DNA of 64,000 nt from Anaerolineales bacterium (lineage in GTDB: Bacteria; Chloroflexota; Anaerolineae; Anaerolineales; Villigracilaceae): the NCBI GenBank assembly GCA_016789025.1, contig JAEURC010000013.1, positions 94 through 64,093 of the forward strand, written 5' to 3'. Position 1 is the first letter of the stretch. Each line of letters begins with the position of its first letter. The position numbers and the translations under genes are program-made. The notes beneath the pieces are model-generated. The model saw only the letters and a list, made by a program, of their open reading frames with translations. It was not told the DNA's origin and did not search any database. Below, one piece after another: positions 2,689 to 58,569 of this stretch.

Positions 2689-3534
2689 TTACCGCTTATC
2701 CAGCGGGCTCCCCTTCAATTTGCTTTGGGGTTGACCGGCGCGCCATGAATAATAACCAAGCCCGGCGCCAGCGAGCAACAGCAGAATACCGAAAATACCC
2801 AGGATCGAGGACCTACCGCCGCCTTCGCTGTCGGAGGGTTCGCTGATCGTCACCGTTTTGGGTTGCGCGCCAAAATCAACGGAAGCGCGGTCGCCTGCCC
2901 TCACAGTGAAGTTATAACTCATCACCATGGTCGGGTTATAACTATCGGGCACCGCCATGCTGACGTTGTAATCTCCCTGCGGCACATCCTCGAAGCATGA
3001 ACGGTCCGGCTCCAGCGTATCCGGGTCAAATGTGGAAACAGTATTCTTGGTCTCGGCATACGAGCCATTGATGTTCGTCAGGTTGACCGCGCCGCCGTCG
3101 ATGCCGAATTCCGTTTCCTGCCGCAACGCGTCGCCGTTGGCATCGTTGAAGAGCAGGACGCACACGATCGTCGTCCCATCGATCGGCGTGGAGGTGGGCG
3201 TCGGCGAAGGAAGGGTAGGCACAGGTCCGGCGGTAGGCTCAATAGAGATTACGCCGACAACCAGTTGTTGCCCAACTGTCAGAGTGCAATCCTGATCGAG
3301 ACGCGTATTCAACAGGCGAAGTTGCGCGACAGTGATCCCATGCAGGAGCGCCACCTGCCCACAGTTATCCCCAGCCACAACCGTATACAGGATGCGCCCA
3401 TCCGCTCCCGGTGTGGCGGTCACAAATCCCTGCCTGTGCGGCGCGGCGAAAACATGCGTGGAAGAAAAAGCGGCGCCCACAACAAGAATTGAAAGGAATA
3501 CGAAGCAGAAAATGAGTATGGCTCTGCGGTTCAT
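2689..3534 (-). CDS. LysM domain protein with N-terminal signal/anchor and C-terminal TM helix
   Basis: LysM-like block YTVVAGDNCGQVALLHGITVAQLRLLN...LTVGQQLVV. Hydrophobic N-terminus ILIFCFVFLSILVV, PT-rich linker, and C-terminal SILGIFGILLLLAGAGLGYY. Confidence 0.75.
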   Translation of the reverse strand: MNRRAILIFCFVFLSILVVGAAFSSTHVFAAPHRQGFVTATPGADGRILYTVVAGDNCGQVALLHGITVAQLRLLNTRLDQDCTLTVGQQLVVGVISIEPTAGPVPTLPSPTPTSTPIDGTTIVCVLLFNDANGDALRQETEFGIDGGAVNLTNINGSYAETKNTVSTFDPDTLEPDRSCFEDVPQGDYNVSMAVPDSYNPTMVMSYNFTVRAGDRASVDFGAQPKTVTISEPSDSEGGGRSSILGIFGILLLLAGAGLGYYSWRAGQPQSKLKGSPLDKR

Positions 3535-3679: not shown

Positions 3680-3810
3680 TAGACTTTATCCGTAATAAGC
3701 CCAGAGTCTTCTTTGGGGACGCAGATGAACGCTGATTTCGCTGATTCAGGAAGAAAAATCTGCGTTTGTCAGCGTGAATCAGCGTCCCGAAGTATTTTCG
3801 GATAATGTCT
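3680..3810. repeat. Family-A palindromic MITE-like element, copy A2
   Basis: Same orientation as A1 and near-identical to it. Lies between the LysM gene start and the tdh-like stop. Confidence 0.85.
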
Positions 3811-7320: not shown

Positions 7321-8577
7321 TTACGGATATTGCCAATTCGCTCCAGTTATGTCGGCAAGCTCAAGCGTGACCTTTTTAGTTTCACCATAAGAAATCCCGT
7401 GCCACATAGTAACATCTCCGCAACCGGTCTCGTAAATATCATCAAGCTTAAGCCAATGGCCAAATTCATGCGTCATAACATTTTGGACATGGTAACTATT
7501 GCTCGCAGGAGGTACGTCGAAATTATCATCCTCATCAAAAGTTGTTGTCACATTTGTAATCACGTTAGGGGAAGCATAAACTGATGTTAAGGCAATGTAC
7601 AAGGCTGATTTATCAATTGGACCTAAATCAATAAAACGTGGACTTTCTTGATCTTGTGACAAAGTAAATTGGCTTGGCGTAATATTAGTCCATGTTAATG
7701 CAGCATTCTGAATAGATGGTATCCAAGATTCTGGAATCGTAGCGCTGTCTATTGAATATTCGATGTCATTATATACAAGCCACGATGCTCCACTTATCCA
7801 GCAGGCCCCGCTTCCATTGTTTTGAGGCGTTCCGGGGACAGGAGTATATGTTATTGAGGTTGGCATACTTGTAGGTGTAAAAGTCTTTGTTGGCGTGAAA
7901 GTTGGTGTTGGAGTATTTGTCGGTGTTGCAACATTAGGATATGTAGCCAGCGTAAGATGCCACTTGTCAGTTCTAACGAGTATTTCAGGGGCAGTTGTAG
8001 TTCTCGAAAACACAACCGTGAAATCATTATACGGATAAGGTTGTCCGGGCACTGTCCAAGTGCCTGACGGATAATCCATGGATGCCAAATCGGAAACGCC
8101 TGAATAATAAATATCGATCTTTCGGTTCGGCATCACCTCGTTTGTAATAGGATACATATTCCACCAGATTGGCACACCCGAATAATAAACCCCGGTATTA
8201 AACTTGATCTTATAGGTGAAATTCGAGCCCATGTTGGTTCGATTATCCCCATATGTGTATGTGATGTCAAAGTCCCAGCGGTAAGGGTCGGTATGTGTTG
8301 TTACCACGGACGCAGAGCAGGTAATGTACGGACCTGATGTACATCCGTACGTTGTGCTTGCGAGTGTCAATCCAGTAAGCGGGGTCGGGGTAAAGGTCGG
8401 CGTGGCAGTATAAGTAGGCGTGAAGGTGAGTGTCGGCGAAGAGGTTGATGTTGGGGTTGAAGTCGGGGGATCCTGAGCAAGAAAAGCAGACGAGACTGTT
8501 CTTGTACGAGATAAAAATAGCAATAGAAACACCATCAACAGGCTTGTTGTTTTTATAACAGCGATCATTTGTTTCAT
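7321..8577 (-). CDS. Secreted zinc metalloprotease (zincin, HEFGHWLKLDD)
   Basis: Signal peptide, PT-rich linkers, and a C-terminal HEFGHWLKLDD motif followed by VTMW (possible Met-turn). Confidence 0.65.
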   Translation of the reverse strand: MKQMIAVIKTTSLLMVFLLLFLSRTRTVSSAFLAQDPPTSTPTSTSSPTLTFTPTYTATPTFTPTPLTGLTLASTTYGCTSGPYITCSASVVTTHTDPYRWDFDITYTYGDNRTNMGSNFTYKIKFNTGVYYSGVPIWWNMYPITNEVMPNRKIDIYYSGVSDLASMDYPSGTWTVPGQPYPYNDFTVVFSRTTTAPEILVRTDKWHLTLATYPNVATPTNTPTPTFTPTKTFTPTSMPTSITYTPVPGTPQNNGSGACWISGASWLVYNDIEYSIDSATIPESWIPSIQNAALTWTNITPSQFTLSQDQESPRFIDLGPIDKSALYIALTSVYASPNVITNVTTTFDEDDNFDVPPASNSYHVQNVMTHEFGHWLKLDDIYETGCGDVTMWHGISYGETKKVTLELADITGANWQYP

Positions 8578-8647
8578 CAGACCCTCTAATAAATCAATTG
8601 ATCCGAAAGCGCATTCATCATTATTCCCCGTGAGTGATGTCAGTTTA

Positions 8648-15850: not shown

Positions 15851-15980
15851 GGTTGAGTAGGCGGCGCTCGTCCGCCGTATCGAAACCAACATGCAATTAA
15901 GATTACTTTTGCAATAAAATGTTTTTTGCTTACTGGTGGTTTCGATACGTCCCGCGAAGTGCACGCGGGACTACTCAACC
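15851..15980. repeat. Family-J structured palindromic element (130 bp)
   Basis: Nested inverted repeats GGTTGAGTAG/CTACTCAACC and GTATCGAAACC/GGTTTCGATAC, plus local hairpin TCCCGCG AAGTGCA CGCGGGA. Confidence 0.8.
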
Positions 15981-50935: not shown

Positions 50936-51297
50936 CAATTGAACGGGCAACAGGGAAGAGACTCAAACGTAGTGACGATTTCAATCGTCAGCAAATAACG
51001 ACTAAAATCGCTACTACGAAATGGGCGCCGAAGGTGCAAATCTGGAGACTGGCGAAACCAGATGAATCTCTCAGGCAAAAGGACCCTGCTCCCGAATCCA
51101 CTCTGGAAAGTTTGATTGTTGCGCAGTTGAACTGCGCGACAACAACACCGACGGTGTAAAGTTAGTTTAGTAGTTGGTTAGTTCAATAGTTGGATAGTTG
51201 AAAAACTATGAAACTATAAAACTAAGAAACTATCAAACTAAACTAATCTCTCAGGTCACATTACAGAGGCGCGCGAAGAATATTCGTGCGCCTTTTT
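50936..51297 (+). promoter_or_regulatory. Tandem-aptamer glycine riboswitch with terminator expression platform
   Basis: Aptamer 1: GGGAAGAG...GCGCCGAAGGTGCAA...CTCTCAGGCAAAAGGAC. Aptamer 2: CTCTGGAAAG...CACCGACGGTGTAAA...CTCTCAGGTCACATTACAGAG. Then a hairpin plus T5. Lies upstream of gcvH. Confidence 0.8.
51268..51297 (+). terminator. Riboswitch-controlled intrinsic terminator
   Basis: GGCGCGCGA AGAATAT TCGTGCGCC followed by TTTTT. Confidence 0.65.
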
Positions 51298-51382
51298 GAT
51301 TCGCCAAAACCCAGTACGGCAAGATTTATCTTGCGCTCTCGCAAAATGAATTTTGCGGCACAACTTCACAAGGAGAATACAC

Positions 51383-51760
51383 ATGAACACCCCCTCCAAT
51401 TTGAAATATGCAAAGTCAGATGAATGGTTCGACCCCGCGAGCGGAAAAGTGGGCATCACCGATTATGCCCAGAATCAACTCTCCGACATTGTCTTCGTCG
51501 AAATTTTCGTCGAAGCGGGAGAGGAGATCGCGGCAGGCAAGGCGATTGCTTCCGTTGAGTCGGTGAAAGCGTCGTCAGAGATTTATGCGCCCGCGGGCGG
51601 AAAAGTCGCGGCGGTGAATAAAGATTTGCCGAACAAGCCTGAGACCATCAACACCGATCCGTTCGGCGCGGGATGGATGATTCAACTCGAAGGCGGATCC
51701 GCTGGCGATATGATGGACGCGGCGGCGTATGAGAAACATTGCGAGGAACGAAGTCATTAG
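51383..51760 (+). CDS. gcvH: Glycine cleavage system protein H
   Basis: LKYAKSDEW..., lipoyl-lysine block VESVKASSEIYAP. ATG 51383 follows AAGGAG. Confidence 0.9.
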   Translation: MNTPSNLKYAKSDEWFDPASGKVGITDYAQNQLSDIVFVEIFVEAGEEIAAGKAIASVESVKASSEIYAPAGGKVAAVNKDLPNKPETINTDPFGAGWMIQLEGGSAGDMMDAAAYEKHCEERSH

Positions 51761-51836: not shown

Positions 51837-53189
51837 ATGACATATATCCCAATAAGTCCCCACGAACGCGATGAGATGCTCGCAACGGTCGGCGTTAAAT
51901 CGCTGGATGATCTGTTCGACGCCGTGCCAGCCAAACATCGCTTCCCCAAACTGGACCTGCCTCCCGCGTGGACAGAAATGGAAGCGTTGGAAGAATTGTC
52001 CAACATCGCAAGCGCCAACGAACATGTGCGCGGCGATCTGATCTCCTTCCTCGGCGCGGGCATGTATCATCACTACATCCCGTCTGTGATTGACCACATG
52101 CTGAGGCGCGGAGAATTTTATACCGCGTACACGCCATACCAGCCCGAAATTTCACAAGGCACATTGCAAGCCATCTTCGAATATCAATCGTTGATGGCGG
52201 CGCTGACCGGCATGGACGTGTCGAACGCGTCTCATTACGACGGGGCGACCGCCACAGCCGAAGCGGTGAACTTGGCGAACGCCCAATTCCGCGGTAAACG
52301 CAAGAAGGTGGTCATCTCCCCCACTGTGCATCCGCAATACCGCGCGGTGATCCGCACGTACACGCAAGGCATGGATTTGCAACTTGTCGGCGATGAAGCG
52401 AACGCCGAACTCGATACCGACCCCAGTGATCTACTCGCGCATGTCGGCGAAGATACGTGTCTCGTCATCGTGCAGTATCCCGATTTCTTCGGGCGCGTGT
52501 ACGATTACAAAAAATTCATTGACGATGTCCATGCCAAAGGCGCGTTGGTCTGCGTGGTTGCGAACCCGACCGCGCTGGCGATGTTCAAAACGCCTGGCGA
52601 AATGGGCGCGGATATCGTTGTCGGCGACGGACAGCCGCTGGGAATCCCAATGTGGTTCGGCGGACCAAGCGTCGGATTTTTCACGACGCGCAAGCAATAC
52701 GTCCACAAGATGGCGGGACGGTTGATCGGCGAAACGGTGGACAACAAAGGTCAACGCGCGTATGTGCTAACCCTCACCGCGCGCGAACAACACATCAAAC
52801 GCGAACGCGCCACGAGCAACATCTGCACCAATCAAGGTTTGCTCGCGCTTGCCTCCGCAATTTATTTGAGCGTGTTGGGCAAAAACGGATTGAAGCAGGT
52901 TGCGAATCTTTGTTATCAAAAAGCGCATTACGCCGCGCGCGAATTGAGCAAGATCAAAGGCTACAAAGTTTCATCTGAAACTTTCTTCCATGAGTTTGTG
53001 TTGGAATGTCCTCAGCCCGCGAGCGACGTCAACGCGCACTTGCTTGAACACGGCATCCTCGGCGGGTACGATCTGGGTCAGGATTATCCGTCGCACAAAA
53101 ATCATTTGCTGGTCGCCGTAACCGAGATGAATTCAAAAGAAGAAATTGACACGCTTGTTGAGGTGTTGTCGGAGGTGAAACATGGTTAG
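51837..53189 (+). CDS. gcvPA: Glycine dehydrogenase (decarboxylating) subunit 1
   Basis: Typical N-terminus MTYIPISPHERDEMLATVG, FLGAGMYHHYIP, YTPYQPEISQG. Confidence 0.95.
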   Translation: MTYIPISPHERDEMLATVGVKSLDDLFDAVPAKHRFPKLDLPPAWTEMEALEELSNIASANEHVRGDLISFLGAGMYHHYIPSVIDHMLRRGEFYTAYTPYQPEISQGTLQAIFEYQSLMAALTGMDVSNASHYDGATATAEAVNLANAQFRGKRKKVVISPTVHPQYRAVIRTYTQGMDLQLVGDEANAELDTDPSDLLAHVGEDTCLVIVQYPDFFGRVYDYKKFIDDVHAKGALVCVVANPTALAMFKTPGEMGADIVVGDGQPLGIPMWFGGPSVGFFTTRKQYVHKMAGRLIGETVDNKGQRAYVLTLTAREQHIKRERATSNICTNQGLLALASAIYLSVLGKNGLKQVANLCYQKAHYAARELSKIKGYKVSSETFFHEFVLECPQPASDVNAHLLEHGILGGYDLGQDYPSHKNHLLVAVTEMNSKEEIDTLVEVLSEVKHG

Positions 53190-54693
53190 CACATTGGATG
53201 CAACGACTCCGAAAATTGTGGAACCGACGATCTTTGATCTTTCCTCGCCCGGACGAGTCGGCGTACGGATGCCCGAGTCAGACGTCCCTGCGGCTGACTC
53301 GCCTCCTCCGCATTTGCTGCGCTCCGAGTTGCCGCTTCCCGAACTCGCCGAAGTGGACGTTGTCCGCCATTACGTCCGACTCTCAAAATTTAATTACAGC
53401 GTGGACGGCGGGTTTTATCCGCTTGGCTCATGCACGATGAAATACAACCCGAAGATCAACGAAGACACGTGCCGATTGCCGGGCTTTTTGTTCACGCATC
53501 CGTTGCAACCTGTTGAGACCGTGCAGGGCAATCTCGCGTTGATGTATCAATTGCAAGAGTGGTTGAAAGAGATCGCGGGATTCGCGGGCGTGACGCTGCA
53601 ACCCGCCGCGGGCGCGCACGGAGAATTTACGGGCGTGTTGATGATGCGCGCGTATCATAAATCGCGCGGCGACGAGAAACGCGTGAAGATGCTCATCCCC
53701 GACGCGGCGCATGGGACGAACCCCGCGTCGGTGGGTATGATGGGAATGACGGTTGTGACGATTCCCTCTGATGATCGCGGCAATGTTGATCTGAAAAAAT
53801 TGGAAGAGGCGTGCGACGATACCGTCGTCGGCATGATGCTCACCAACCCGAACACGCTCGGCATGTTCGATGAAAATGTCGAGAAGGTGATCTCGCTCGT
53901 GCATGGATGCGGCGGCTTGATGTATGGCGACGGCGCGAATCTGAATCCGTTACTCGGCATCGTCCGCCCTGGTGATTTGGGCTTTGACGTGATGCACTTC
54001 AACTTGCACAAAACATTTGCCGTTCCGCACGGCGGCGGCGGACCTGGAGTTGGTCCCGTTGGAGTCGGTCCCAAACTCGTGGACTTTTTGCCTGAGCCGC
54101 TTGTGGGAATCATTGAAGAGGGCGAAGAGGATATGCCTCCGCTGTATGGCTTTGTCAAACCTGCGAAGACGATCGGTCGCATGAAAGCCTTCCACGGACA
54201 TTTCGGCGGCGGCTTCGTCCGTTCGTTCACCTACATCGCCATGCACGGACCTGACGGACTCAAAGACATCGCGCAATACGCGGTGTTGAATGCCAACTAT
54301 CTGCAAGCGAGACTGCGCGATCATTATCACATTCCGTTTGATCGCATCTGCATGCACGAGTTTGTGATGGAAGGTCAGTTTGAAGGAAGCGATGTTAGAG
54401 CGTTGGACATTTCCAAGCGCCTGATGGACTACAACTTCCATCCGCCTACAAATTATTTCCCGCTCATCGTCCACGAAGCGTTGATGATCGAGCCGACCGA
54501 GACCGAAAATAAAGACACGCTCGATGCTTTCGCCGACGCGCTGATTCAGATCGCGAAGGAGGCGAAGTCTACGCCTGAGATCGTCAAGTCCGCGCCGAAC
54601 GATACGCTGTTCGGAAGGATGGACGAGGTCAAGGCGGCGAGGGAGTTGGTGTTGTGCTGTTGGCTGCCTGAGGGGTATGATTTGAACGCGTAA
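53182..54693 (+). CDS. gcvPB: Glycine dehydrogenase (decarboxylating) subunit 2
   Basis: GSCTMKYNP, and PLP site HFNLHKTFAVPHGGGGPG. Overlaps the gcvPA stop. Confidence 0.95.
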   Translation: MVSTLDATTPKIVEPTIFDLSSPGRVGVRMPESDVPAADSPPPHLLRSELPLPELAEVDVVRHYVRLSKFNYSVDGGFYPLGSCTMKYNPKINEDTCRLPGFLFTHPLQPVETVQGNLALMYQLQEWLKEIAGFAGVTLQPAAGAHGEFTGVLMMRAYHKSRGDEKRVKMLIPDAAHGTNPASVGMMGMTVVTIPSDDRGNVDLKKLEEACDDTVVGMMLTNPNTLGMFDENVEKVISLVHGCGGLMYGDGANLNPLLGIVRPGDLGFDVMHFNLHKTFAVPHGGGGPGVGPVGVGPKLVDFLPEPLVGIIEEGEEDMPPLYGFVKPAKTIGRMKAFHGHFGGGFVRSFTYIAMHGPDGLKDIAQYAVLNANYLQARLRDHYHIPFDRICMHEFVMEGQFEGSDVRALDISKRLMDYNFHPPTNYFPLIVHEALMIEPTETENKDTLDAFADALIQIAKEAKSTPEIVKSAPNDTLFGRMDEVKAARELVLCCWLPEGYDLNA

Positions 54694-54708
54694 GGTAAAT
54701 CAAATTAC

Positions 54709-54748
54709 CAAGAGACCAAGTTGAAAAGCTTGGTCTCTTGCATTTTTA
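54709..54748 (+). terminator. Rho-independent terminator after gcvPB
   Basis: CAAGAGACCAAG TTGAAAAG CTTGGTCTCTTG then CATTTTT. Confidence 0.7.
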
Positions 54749-54768
54749 AAAAAGGGTAAAATAATAAC

Positions 54769-55101
54769 ATGAACGAGAAAGCGCCTGCGCAGATTAGAAA
54801 GCTAATGAAGGAATTGAAAGAAGGTCTCCAAGGTATCTATGGGGATCAATTGAAAGCCGTCTATCTATACGGCTCCTATGCGCGCGGGGATTACCGCCCA
54901 GGCTCGGATGTAGATGTGATGGTCCTGCTAAAAGACTATAGAGATTATTGGAAAGAATACATGCGTTCCAGCGATTACGTCAGTGATATTTCGCTCAAAT
55001 ATGATGTGACGATAAGTTACATACTCATTAAGGAGCTTCAATGGAAAGAAGCAGATAAACCCGTTCTTCGCAATATCCGCAGAGACGGTATGCCTGCATG
55101 A
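54769..55101 (+). CDS. MNT-type nucleotidyltransferase (antitoxin of HEPN/MNT module)
   Basis: YLYGSYARGDYRPGSDVDVMVLL = GSxxRGxxxxxSDxD signature. Has a 4-nt overlap with the HEPN gene. Confidence 0.85.
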   Translation: MNEKAPAQIRKLMKELKEGLQGIYGDQLKAVYLYGSYARGDYRPGSDVDVMVLLKDYRDYWKEYMRSSDYVSDISLKYDVTISYILIKELQWKEADKPVLRNIRRDGMPA

Positions 55102-55484
55102 AAGAGCATTCAAGAAAGTTGCTCGATAAAGCCCTGGATTCCATCGAGGTCGCTGAGGGAATCCTTGATATGGACAAACCAGATATGGCCGCGGGACGCG
55201 CCTACTACGCAATGTTCTATGTAGCTGAAGCAATGTTGTATGAAAAAGGGTTGGAATTTAACTCTCATGGTCAGGTGATCGGCGCGTATGGGAAAGAATT
55301 TGCAAAAACAGAGGAACTCGACCAAAAATTCCATCGCTGGCTGAGGGCGGGATTCGATGCGCGCATTTCTGGCGATTATGATGTTGACACGAACCTCACC
55401 AATCAGTTTGTTGCGGACATGATCAATCAAGCCCGCGAGTTTCTCGAAGCCGCGCAAAGCTATTTGAAAAAGCAAAAAACATAA
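55098..55484 (+). CDS. HEPN domain protein (toxin of HEPN/MNT module)
   Basis: Helical 128-aa protein: AGRAYYAMFYVAEAML...FDARISGDYD, arranged as in HEPN partners of MNT. Confidence 0.75.
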   Translation: MKEHSRKLLDKALDSIEVAEGILDMDKPDMAAGRAYYAMFYVAEAMLYEKGLEFNSHGQVIGAYGKEFAKTEELDQKFHRWLRAGFDARISGDYDVDTNLTNQFVADMINQAREFLEAAQSYLKKQKT

Positions 55485-55497
55485 CGTGCAGTTTGAC

Positions 55498-55596
55498 AGG
55501 GTGGATGAAGTCAAAGCGGCGAGGGAGTTGGTGCTGTGTTCGTTTCGACACGCTCAACGCAAGGCTGGTTGCCTGAGGGGTATGATGAGCGCGTAA
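55498..55596 (+). pseudogene. Degenerate duplicate of the gcvPB 3' end
   Basis: AGGGTGGATGAAGTCAAAGCGGCGAGGGAGTTGGTGCTGTG...CTGGTTGCCTGAGGGGTATGATGAGCGCGTAA aligns with 54616..54693, with a few substitutions and an insert of about 25 nt. Confidence 0.75.
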
Positions 55597-55804
55597 CAAA
55601 TTTTATGTGGGGGCGGACGGCTGTCCGCCCCTACGGTTTATAATGGGGATCACTATGAACGACAGTATCAGCAATAATCTCTACAACCTCCTCAAAGGCA
55701 CATGGTCAGGCGCAGGGCGCGGGCGGAATAAATGAACAGTTTTACATGAGAGGATGAGTAGATTTGTTCGTTCAATGCCAATCATGGCACGTAAGGAGAT
55801 AGAG

Positions 55805-58368: not shown

Positions 58369-58434
58369 CAGTAGATCACGAAAGTTCAGGTGACACAGCA
58401 CAACTACGTCAAGAACCGTTTTCGTGAAGTACTG
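58369..58434. repeat. Family-C palindromic element, copy C2
   Basis: CAGTAGATCACGAAA ... TTTCGTGAAGTACTG termini. The interior differs from C1. Confidence 0.65.
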
Positions 58435-58438
58435 ATAA

Positions 58439-58569
58439 TAGACTTTATCGGTAATAAGCAAAAAATCCGTTTTGGACGCTGATGAACGCAGAAAAACGCA
58501 GATTTTTTCTTTTGAATCAGCGTGAGTCAGTGTTTATCTGCGTCCTAATTTTATTTCCGATAGAGTCTA
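58439..58569. repeat. Family-A element, diverged copy A3 (inverted relative to A1/A2)
   Basis: TAGACTTTATCGGTAATAAG...TTCCGATAGAGTCTA. The interior matches the reverse complement of A1 at most positions by eye. Confidence 0.75.

Follow-up and report, generated by a model that had tools for sequence, protein, structure and literature searches.

The DNA considered here is a stretch of 64,000 nt (the window) from an uncultured Anaerolineales bacterium of the Chloroflexota (assembly GCA_016789025.1, contig JAEURC010000013.1, positions 94 to 64,093), and the element in question lies directly behind its gcvPB gene, which encodes glycine dehydrogenase subunit 2. The functional 3′ end of gcvPB (tail 1) is followed by an overlapping pair of genes for a minimal nucleotidyltransferase (MNT) and a HEPN-domain protein, and these by a displaced, non-coding second copy of the gcvPB 3′ end (tail 2). 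The gene itself is the final one of a gcvH-gcvPA-gcvPB operon with a glycine riboswitch upstream at 50943-51096; gcvT is found neither in this operon nor in the approximately 1.2 kb read upstream of the riboswitch (50943-51760 region). Comparison with related loci, which are referred to below by handles such as L100, suggests that the gcvPB 3′ end has served in a clade of Anaerolineales as a long-standing and repeatedly reshuffled insertion hot spot, and that the locus in the window is the nested product of several steps.

The features of the locus are collected in Table 1. A preliminary description, made from the letters of the sequence, had listed the gcvPB end, a hairpin with a T-run, an overlapping MNT/HEPN pair and a GC hairpin, and this anatomy is confirmed by the open reading frames (ORFs), the Pfam matches and a terminator scan, which places the first terminator-like hairpin proper at 54709-54740 with the T-run after it. 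The MNT and HEPN genes overlap by 4 nt. The region 54500-55800 is 100% identical in contigs of 11 independent ENA/JGI assemblies, by which an assembly artefact is ruled out, and the insert is present in every same-species contig; no variation between presence and absence was observed among them.

Table 1. Positions (window coordinates) of the features at the gcvPB locus and of the related dispersed repeat
Feature	Position	Strand	Evidence
gcvPB (glycine dehydrogenase subunit 2)	53182..54693	+	ORF; Pfam GDC-P + GcvP2_C
Tail copy 1, functional gcvPB 3′ end, left direct repeat	54606..54693	+	alignment with 55488-55596
Cassette-linked replacement end AACGCGTAA (...N-A-stop)	54685..54693	+	point of divergence from cassette-free relatives
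Hairpin and T-run terminator moving with the MNT/HEPN unit	54709..54748	+	terminator scan; consensus AAAGACCAGGTTGAGAAGCCTGGTCTTTTG
Conserved GGGTAAAATAA box, ends 6 nt before the MNT ATG	54754..54768	+	cross-locus conservation
MNT minimal nucleotidyltransferase, putative antitoxin	54769..55101	+	Pfam NTP_transf_2/Polbeta
HEPN-domain protein (UPF0332/PF05168 type), putative toxin	55098..55484	+	Pfam HEPN (PF05168)
CGTGCA, last remnant of the ORF106/ORF90 5′ region	55485..55490	+	L103 comparison; marks the junction of a deletion of ~281 nt
Tail copy 2, displaced non-coding gcvPB 3′ end, right direct repeat	55488..55596	+	
Insert within tail 2 (net +23 nt), hairpin-less copy of a REP-like repeat (GTTTCGAYACG...CTCAAC)	55540..55564	+	
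GC-rich terminator-like hairpin after tail 2, then a TATAAT-like box	55606..55635	+	terminator scan
Nitrobindin-like (THAP4_heme-bd) gene, truncated 26-codon 5′ remnant (MNDSISNNLYNLLKGTWSGAGRGRNK, then stop)	55655..55735	+	
Inverted doublet of the REP-like repeat: ggtgGTTTCGATACG, variable GC hairpin, CTACTCAACCacc	15851..15980	.	flanks match the tail 2 insert

The MNT/HEPN unit and its junctions

The MNT carries a catalytic motif of the GSxxRG...SDxD type (GSYARGDYRPGSDVD, residues 35-49), and the best solved relatives of both proteins belong to one and the same MNT-HEPN complex, PDB entry 9xbd, the two chains of which match the two proteins of the window (chain E for the MNT, with an E value of 1.5e-15, and chain A for the HEPN protein, with an E value of 1.3e-23). 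The HepT/MntA pair constitutes the type VII toxin-antitoxin (TA) system (PMC7641770), with which the window's pair shares the overlap of a minimal nucleotidyltransferase gene with a HEPN-domain gene as well as the GS-x-RG...SD-x-D motif. It differs from that system in its HEPN protein, which is of the UPF0332/PF05168 type and in whose sequence the Rx4-6H RNase motif is not found, RISGDY standing there instead, and in its MNT, which scores 38.3 with the NCBIfam MntA model, under the cut-off of 60; the NCBIfam HepT model gives no match for the window's HEPN protein. The pair would appear to work like an MNT/HEPN toxin-antitoxin pair of the type VII kind, with the HEPN protein as a putative toxin, and not to be a HepT/MntA equivalog. 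Between the window and the loci L100 and L104 the nonsynonymous divergence (dN) of the MNT and HEPN genes amounts to 0.05-0.10, the ratio of dN to the synonymous divergence (dS) is approximately 0.05 for the MNT, and the HEPN gene shows a dN of 0.06 with dS saturated; judged by these substitution rates, the cassette is under purifying selection, which, along with the overlap of the genes and the homologous 9xbd complex, speaks indirectly for a toxin-antitoxin function.

Among the nearest species representatives (Anaerolineales metagenome-assembled genomes of the Chloroflexota, with gcvPB 79-85% identical), a terminator comes after gcvPB, and neither the cassette nor a second tail is present; closer relatives and cassette homologues came from searches of larger collections. 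In these, the MNT/HEPN pair was found directly 3′ of gcvPB in nine loci (the window, L100, L103, L104, L110, L111, L113, L114 and L116). The left junction is constant in all nine: the gene end is separated by a spacer of variable length (15-130 nt) from the hairpin AAAGACCAGGTTGAGAAGCCTGGTCTTTTG, after which a GGTAAAATAA box stands 5-6 nt ahead of the MNT ATG. The hairpin is kept upstream of the MNT in L100, L103, L104 and L110-L116, and also in L115, L117 and L134, and most cassette copies retain a G/A-GTAAAATA sequence on the 5′ side of the ATG, at a distance of 5-6 nt, in nearly every genomic context read. The GGGTAAAATAA box of the window may represent a -10 element, that is, a putative promoter for a leaderless transcript.

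The gene ends themselves differ according to whether the pair is present. All nine tails adjoining MNT/HEPN end in ...AACGCGTAA/G (N-A-stop), as opposed to the ...AGTAA/AGTGA of the cassette-free L145, L146, L148, L150 and L151, which agrees with the proposal of the preliminary description that the unit supplies a replacement gene end. Cassette-free relatives also have a different family of terminators 3′ of gcvPB (AAGCCTCG...CGAGGCTT), and the sequence of the window ceases to match L145, the relative nearest to it (gcvPB 96% identical), at 54685. The MNT/HEPN unit can accordingly be described as a set of new last codons, a hairpin, a putative promoter and two genes, which replaces only the last 2-3 codons of gcvPB.

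The right junctions, on the other hand, fall into five types. The HEPN gene is followed by ORF90 and a short tail in L103 and L116, by a 41-nt stub of ORF106 (counted from after the HEPN stop) and a tail starting at gcvPB residue 435 in L110, L111 and L114, by a different short stub in L104, by a 6-nt stub (CGTGCA) in the window, and by no tail at all in L100. Depending on the locus, tail 2 starts at gcvPB residue 435, at residue 451 or at about residues 474-487; a longer tail cannot be derived from a shorter one by deletion, and the duplication must therefore have happened more than once. Some contigs contain three tails, as do L111 and L113, in the order tail, MNT/HEPN, tail, lipoprotein-like gene, tail.

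The distribution of the pair is patchy, in that L145, L150, L146 and L149 (gcvPB 95-96% identical), L148 (92%) and L151 (90%) have no MNT/HEPN at the site, whereas the more distant L100, L104 and L116 (86-87%) possess it. With respect to age, dS between the window and L100 or L104 is 1.1-1.3 for gcvPB, 1.06-1.36 for the MNT gene and above 1.7 (given also as above 2.5) for the HEPN gene. The cassette is, by this measure, old at the gcvPB locus; a recent insertion event is not supported, cassette dS between lineages being 1.1-1.4 or higher, and a recent horizontal transfer, which was looked for in the form of low dS, was not seen.

The second gcvPB tail

The local alignment of 54580-54720 with 55485-55640 has a score of 77, compared to 16.7 ± 2.5 (maximum 27) in 500 shuffles, so that chance similarity of the tails is ruled out and the second tail stands as real in the very check that had been proposed for it. 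A repeat search pairs 54606-54656 with 55488-55538 at 82% identity and 54661-54681 with 55566-55586 at 95%; besides the net insertion of 23 nt, tail 2 shows a 2-nt deletion ahead of its TAA. Of the original account of this copy, its presence holds, while the start (given as 13 nt past the HEPN stop) and the length (given as ~80 nt) have to be corrected to 3-4 nt and approximately 88 nt.

It was further supposed that tail 2 is the footprint of the MNT/HEPN insertion, and relatives that lack the cassette yet carry the second tail had been named as the finding that would speak to the contrary. Such relatives exist in L148 and L149, both of which carry tail 2 without MNT/HEPN, and the supposition is thereby refuted. 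In L148, a native-type gcvPB end is followed by a terminator with a GCTATAAT promoter, the small gene ORF106 (which has no match in Pfam or NCBIfam), tail 2 with the 23-nt insert, and a second terminator with promoter, and the tail, terminator and promoter together form a direct repeat of approximately 200 nt. The other loci can be read as derivatives of this order. In L103 and L116, the MNT/HEPN unit takes the place of the native terminator and promoter as well as of the initial ~13 codons of ORF106, what remains being ORF90, followed by tail 2. L103 reads CGTGCA-ACCCATT... at this point, homologous to the ORF106 5′ region of L148, while the window jumps from CGTGCA into the flank of the tail and corresponds to an L103-like arrangement minus about 281 nt, with a 2-nt CA microhomology at the deletion junction. 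The gene orders indicate that the second tail is part of another insert, that of ORF106, and predates the MNT/HEPN unit. Thus, the notion of an insertion into the gene end is upheld insofar as DNA was inserted at the end of gcvPB and an older tail was displaced downstream, but not with regard to the TA cassette as the maker of the duplicate.

The other relative, L149 (gcvPB 95% identical), has a gcvPB end of the cassette type (N-A-stop) and a truncated tail 2. Between the two (L149:5177-5330) lies a palindromic element of 95 nt with 16-nt inverted repeats (AAACCTGACATGTCTC ... GAGACATGTCAGGTTT), the left arm of which is similar to the sequence after tail 1 in L110-L114. The idea derived from this palindrome, namely that terminal inverted repeats bound the cassette, was rejected, as no matching right end occurs after HEPN in any locus.

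Downstream of the tail, an intact nitrobindin-like gene follows gcvPB in the cassette-free L151 and in L152, and L151 also has the window's sigma/anti-sigma genes. The remnant at 55655-55735 accordingly marks the ancestral downstream neighbour, with tail 2 adjoining the ancestral neighbours of gcvPB. The claim that the hairpin at 55606-55635 is the original terminator of gcvPB cannot be shown, the hairpins after the tails of relatives being of a different, non-homologous family. In L146 (6626-10756) and L148 (6617-11346), a variable region separates gcvPB from the counterparts of the window's membrane-protein and sigma-factor genes, and further TA pairs (MazE/PemK, HepT/MNT and an MNT/HEPN other than that of the window) are found in it together with unannotated ORFs.

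Tail 2 is well conserved. Over 90 nt, insert included, the copies of the window, L103 and L148 share 92-94% identity, as compared with 87% for the functional tail 1 and 85-89% for the adjoining gcvPB; the sequence 3′ of tail 2 is unalignable among the lineages, and gcvPB dS within the subclade is 0.45-0.62. The characterization of the second copy as decaying is therefore not borne out, synonymous sites being far more diverged than this tail in the three lineages. Conversion from tail 1 is ruled out as the source of the conservation, because tail 2 outdoes its would-be template and keeps a foreign insert, and the conservation of tail 2 is the least explained fact of the analysis. The copy in the window is a mosaic, its 5′ part being common to tail 2 of L103 and L148 and its 3′ end being of the cassette-linked ...CGCGTAA type. 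A cassette-type 3′ end is likewise borne by tail 2 of L104, in which tails 1 and 2 are 100% identical across 60 nt with diverged flanks; the structure of L104 was found again in the independent Logan contig L105.

Two further readings of tail 2 were considered and rejected. As a structured RNA it gives z = -1.9 on the + strand and z = -4.4 on the - strand, the latter value being driven by the terminator hairpin and by window-specific pairing that is absent from L103 and L148, and Rfam has no family match at tail 2. A 36-aa ORF spanning the tail (55486-55596) was dismissed as a gene, given that neither L103 nor L148 preserves its frame.

The insert within tail 2, which had been likened to an arm of the palindromic element at 15851-15980, is present with one mismatch in tail 2 of L103 and L148 as well. 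The likeness is genuine: the pattern GTTTCGAYAC-N(0-30)-CTCAAC occurs three times in the window (in both arms of 15851-15980 and in the tail 2 insert) and not once in shuffled sequence. Further copies of this repeat, which resembles repetitive extragenic palindromic (REP) sequences, are found at L100:1139-1176, L111:2352-2388, L120:3119-3236 (a doublet) and L131:3697-3739, and copies with or without the hairpin stand directly after HEPN in L118 and L134 (hairpin-less in L134). The hairpin differs in sequence from copy to copy and is always perfectly paired, often within inverted doublets; GTAG precedes it on the opposite strand and the copies are dispersed, as is typical of REP sequences and REPINs, and Rfam has no family match for the repeat. 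A different dispersed element of the window is a direct repeat of 131 nt (2416-2546 and 3680-3810, 98% identical) that brackets a minus-strand LysM-like gene (2689-3534). It was considered as a second case of tail duplication and rejected, since it is a palindromic element resembling miniature inverted-repeat transposable elements, with inverted repeats at its ends (AGACTTTATCCG/CGGATAATGTCT) and a third copy at about 58417-58545 (- strand), and not a gene tail.

Similar architectures and the search for a carrier

The preliminary description had suggested looking for the cassette beside duplicated tails of other genes, and one such case was found. In L121, a related MNT/HEPN pair lies behind recN and is followed by a repeat of approximately 164 nt at 92% identity, which comprises the last 126 nt of recN and about 38 nt beyond; the second copy is in frame and has its own terminator next to it. 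In L125 and L129, the repeat consists of a stop codon and a terminator hairpin and stands behind other gene ends. An independent case from another class is provided by L048, a metagenome-assembled genome of the Chloroflexia, in which a SAM-methyltransferase-like gene (7530-8426) lies between the gcvPB end and a degenerate second copy of it (8508-8580; region 7380-8580). Among 76 control gcvPB loci from other bacteria, tail duplication is seen in only 1-2 (L048 and one weak case). Arrays of MNT/HEPN units were also observed, namely in L128 (1-2508), where units are split by hairpin-bearing repeats (a 126-nt exact repeat and families of 46- and 40-nt repeats), and in L125 (877-2332), with three copies of a terminator-hairpin segment.

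Nothing above shuffles is shared as a core among the repeats at gcvPB, recN, L129 and L109, by which a common att core is ruled out; the repeats extend over 15 to about 315 nt and have differing left ends. No recombinase Pfam family was found among the genes called within 5-6 kb in the window and approximately 15 related contexts (some contigs end sooner), the neighbourhoods inspected totalling about 1 Mb, so that the cassette indeed lacks an integrase or recombinase in every context read. No viral contig bears the 26-nt core of the tail or a HEPN relative, which disposes of a phage attP or viral carrier, and a plasmid origin was rejected in view of no DNA match and of pairs below 45% identity as the only counterparts on cyanobacterial and other plasmids. 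Reading the hairpins and the insert as integron attC sites fails on polarity and consensus, with no IntI nearby. Taken together, the absence of a recombinase within 5-6 kb, of a shared core and of a phage or plasmid counterpart, along with the variable repeats and right junctions, gives no indication of the integrase mechanism of tRNA islands that the preliminary description had invoked for comparison.

Possible origins and related systems

The arrangement in the window can be accounted for by a model in three steps. An old event would have put ORF106 behind gcvPB, duplicating the gene end together with terminator and promoter and thereby giving rise to tail 2, which a REP-like repeat would later have entered. 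The MNT/HEPN unit would then have been substituted for the native terminator and promoter and for the initial ~13 codons of ORF106, and the lineage of the window would finally have lost the remaining part of ORF106, which would leave tail 2 only 3 nt from the HEPN stop. In the explanation that we favour, with a probability of roughly 0.45, such units are installed and reshuffled by one-sided homologous recombination anchored in gcvPB, that is, by insertion-duplication or by homology-facilitated illegitimate recombination (HFIR). Here gcvPB would act as the homology anchor: donor DNA from a relative would pair via conserved gcvPB sequence, resulting in the constant homologous left junction, and its other end would join illegitimately, or else the fragment would circularize and enter by a single crossover, and either route would duplicate a gene-end stretch of variable length. 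This explanation is favoured because the combination of one constant homologous junction in nine loci, a variable illegitimate junction of five types and variable-length duplications of the anchor matches the products of HFIR and single crossovers.

The tail copies would go on recombining with each other, leading to mosaics, conversion tracts and arrays, and the mosaic tails, the 60-nt identity in L104 and the identity switches of a second strain type are taken as signs of continuing recombination. In this strain type (L082/L091 and L095, compared with the window over 49.3-62.2 kb), identity to the window is approximately 84-90% upstream and through gcvPA and switches to 100% at ~53.6 kb in L082/L091 and at ~54.2 kb in L095. 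Both points lie within gcvPB, and the full identity extends for more than 8 kb, which would reflect recent recombination whose crossovers fell in gcvPB, or else chimerism of the contigs. The like architecture behind recN, in L125 and L129 and in L048 counts in favour of a general process that does without a recombinase. An addictive MNT/HEPN pair would moreover counter its own loss through recombination between the flanking tails, which would explain the persistence of TA cargo. The anatomy of the locus, its occurrence in relatives, the types of junction and the degrees of conservation are observed, and from these sequence comparisons we infer the recombination pathway, the horizontal spread, the stabilizing role of the pair and the promoter. 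A wider generalization, which we regard as possible but doubtful, would be that in the Chloroflexota accessory cassettes move with no recombinase of their own, each one bearing a gene-end copy from a conserved housekeeping gene (gcvPB, recN) that serves as a portable homology arm, by which host recombination inserts them behind that gene in any relative, irrespective of the downstream sequence, and builds integron-like arrays; the conservation of tail 2 would then stem from selection on, or turnover of, the mobile unit, and MNT/HEPN pairs would be over-represented by blocking pop-out.

It has to be noted that several observations weigh against the anchored recombination. Some of the contigs with several tails come from short-read metagenomes, measure 1.4-2.7 kb and are possibly misjoined, and the mosaics of L082 and L095 could be assembly chimeras. 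No recombination intermediates (excised circles, pop-out alleles) were obtained, and a route of DNA uptake in these organisms, natural competence or other, is an assumption of the model. Tail 2, insert included, is better conserved than the functional tail 1, a fact that is accounted for neither by neutral decay nor by conversion from tail 1 and that hints at a constrained site, for instance one recognized by a recombinase. Indels in the pseudo-tails occur at the same Cys-Cys codons in two groups and could be the mark of a cleavage site. Finally, between the window and L100 or L104 the cassette has diverged at synonymous sites as far as gcvPB has, and vertical descent with losses could account for much of the pattern.

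A rival proposal is that of a site-specific recombinase acting in trans, according to which the tails would be sites of the attL/attR type, belonging to integrative elements that target the gcvPB 3′ end in the way of islands at tRNA genes or of integrative and conjugative elements at protein-gene ends, and the MNT/HEPN and ORF106 units would be integrase-less remnants or satellites, mobilized or accreted by an integrase encoded elsewhere in the manner of cis-mobilizable elements (CIMEs). Such a scheme would accommodate direct repeats that bracket inserts in arrays of up to three tails, a unit that brings its own replacement gene end, a tail 2 conserved above neutral expectation and above tail 1, recurrent indels at the Cys-Cys codons, and an exact 60-nt core between diverged flanks in L104. 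We nonetheless consider it unlikely, given the lack of recombinase genes within 5-6 kb in about 15 contexts (about 1 Mb of neighbourhoods), the range of repeat lengths from 15 to about 315 nt with varying right junctions, the repeats behind recN and other genes that have no core in common with the gcvPB tail, and the absence of the tail core and HEPN gene from viral contigs and of a plasmid counterpart. Another rival is a single ancient insertion, in which the ORF106 and MNT/HEPN units would have entered a common ancestor by a one-off accident, followed by vertical descent with local deletion, conversion between tails and repeated loss, nothing being mobile today. The cassette dS about equal to or above that of gcvPB, a left junction that is identical everywhere, the derivation of the window form from an L103-like form by one 281-nt deletion, and the identity of the locus in 11 samples, among which this species showed no variation between presence and absence, are all in keeping with such a history. 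It would require, however, several independent losses (in L145, L146, L148, L149, L150 and L151) and L148 would have had to regain a full-length ORF106 along with a gene end, terminator and promoter of the native type; it cannot produce the long tail from residue 435 (L110, L111 and L114) out of a short one by deletion, recN and a genome of the Chloroflexia offer independent instances of the same architecture, and the conservation of tail 2 would be left unexplained. This history, too, is judged improbable.

Least probable is replication template switching, in which forks would stall at terminator or REP-like hairpins, a cassette would be copied from another template and re-priming upstream would create a duplication of variable length. 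Every repeat does include or abut the terminator hairpin of a gene end, REP-like hairpin repeats populate the hot spot and the duplications vary in length, but the constant left junction within the last gcvPB codons across lineages and the mosaic tails are unexplained by it, and no microhomology pattern is seen beyond the 2-nt CA at the deletion in the window. We know of no bacterial precedent for the capture of a cassette by template switching.

As regards known mobile systems, genomic islands, integrative and conjugative elements (ICEs), integrative and mobilizable elements (IMEs) and integrase-less CIMEs integrate in the 3′ ends of tRNA or protein-coding genes. They resemble the present case in the insertion at a 3′ end, the replacement end supplied by the insert, the flanking direct repeats and the tandem accretion. 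Of their hallmarks, direct repeats that flank the insert and complete the target gene are found here, whereas a recombinase gene and a core of constant extent are not; there is no integrase in cis and no fixed att core, the repeats are variable, the units measure 0.5-1.1 kb, and unrelated genes have unrelated repeats. Integron cassettes and the arrays known as clusters of attC sites lacking integron-integrases (CALINs) are similar in that small, promoter-poor or single-operon cassettes, often of TA type, are arrayed between repeats. The separators here are copies of the end of a housekeeping gene and not attC sites, and no attC-like RYYYAAC...GTTRRRY was seen by eye (no dedicated attC model was run), nor any IntI nearby. 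The minimal mobile elements of Neisseria are cassettes without mobility genes that are exchanged by homologous recombination of conserved flanks; they employ two conserved flanking genes and involve no duplication, unlike the present locus, where the right flank is a duplicated piece of the left gene.

Closer parallels come from work on recombination with one homologous segment. In a conjugation study with E. coli, DNA carrying one such segment mostly gave single-crossover products with gene-end duplications of 109-950 bp (PMC3240628), and HFIR is cited for Acinetobacter, Streptococcus and Pseudomonas in PMC5361080. The likeness to insertion-duplication and HFIR lies in one homologous anchor and one non-homologous end, in a variable gene-end duplication and in the dispensability of a dedicated recombinase. 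The difference is that those were laboratory events with engineered DNA, while the footprints here are natural, old, nested, recurrent at one housekeeping gene in many lineages, and array-building. HFIR has also been proposed as the mechanism behind the orphan 3′-end arrays at type VI secretion system (T6SS) and Rhs loci (PMC5361080). In such displacement arrays of polymorphic-toxin C termini (Rhs, CdiA-CT/CdiI orphans, T6SS effector-immunity pairs; PMC5361080), a constant 5′ gene body is likewise combined with old 3′ ends displaced downstream, and the orphan 3′ fragments keep a conserved stretch usable for recombination (PMC5361080). These arrays differ from the one described here in encoding variable toxin domains with immunity genes, under obvious selection for diversity; at gcvPB the anchor is a metabolic enzyme, the tail is regenerated, and the anchor bears no relation to its cargo of a TA pair, small ORFs and a lipoprotein-like gene. 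The kinds of event themselves are known, and what is new is the insertion at a gene end with displaced tails at a metabolic gene, by tiny cassettes without a nearby recombinase, recurring across lineages.

TA pairs are commonly called mobile, yet the relocation of bare two-gene cassettes has rarely been documented, and the nine gcvPB-linked loci, together with the recN and Chloroflexia cases, provide a natural series of footprints. As a practical caution, duplicated gene tails beside TA pairs do not by themselves prove an integrase-driven island. If the homology-anchored route should prove true, related uncultured bacteria would have a general means of passing accessory genes among themselves that calls for no recombinase; the route would also explain how gene ends become hot spots, and it would tie the orphan 3′-end arrays of toxin loci to ordinary metabolic genes.

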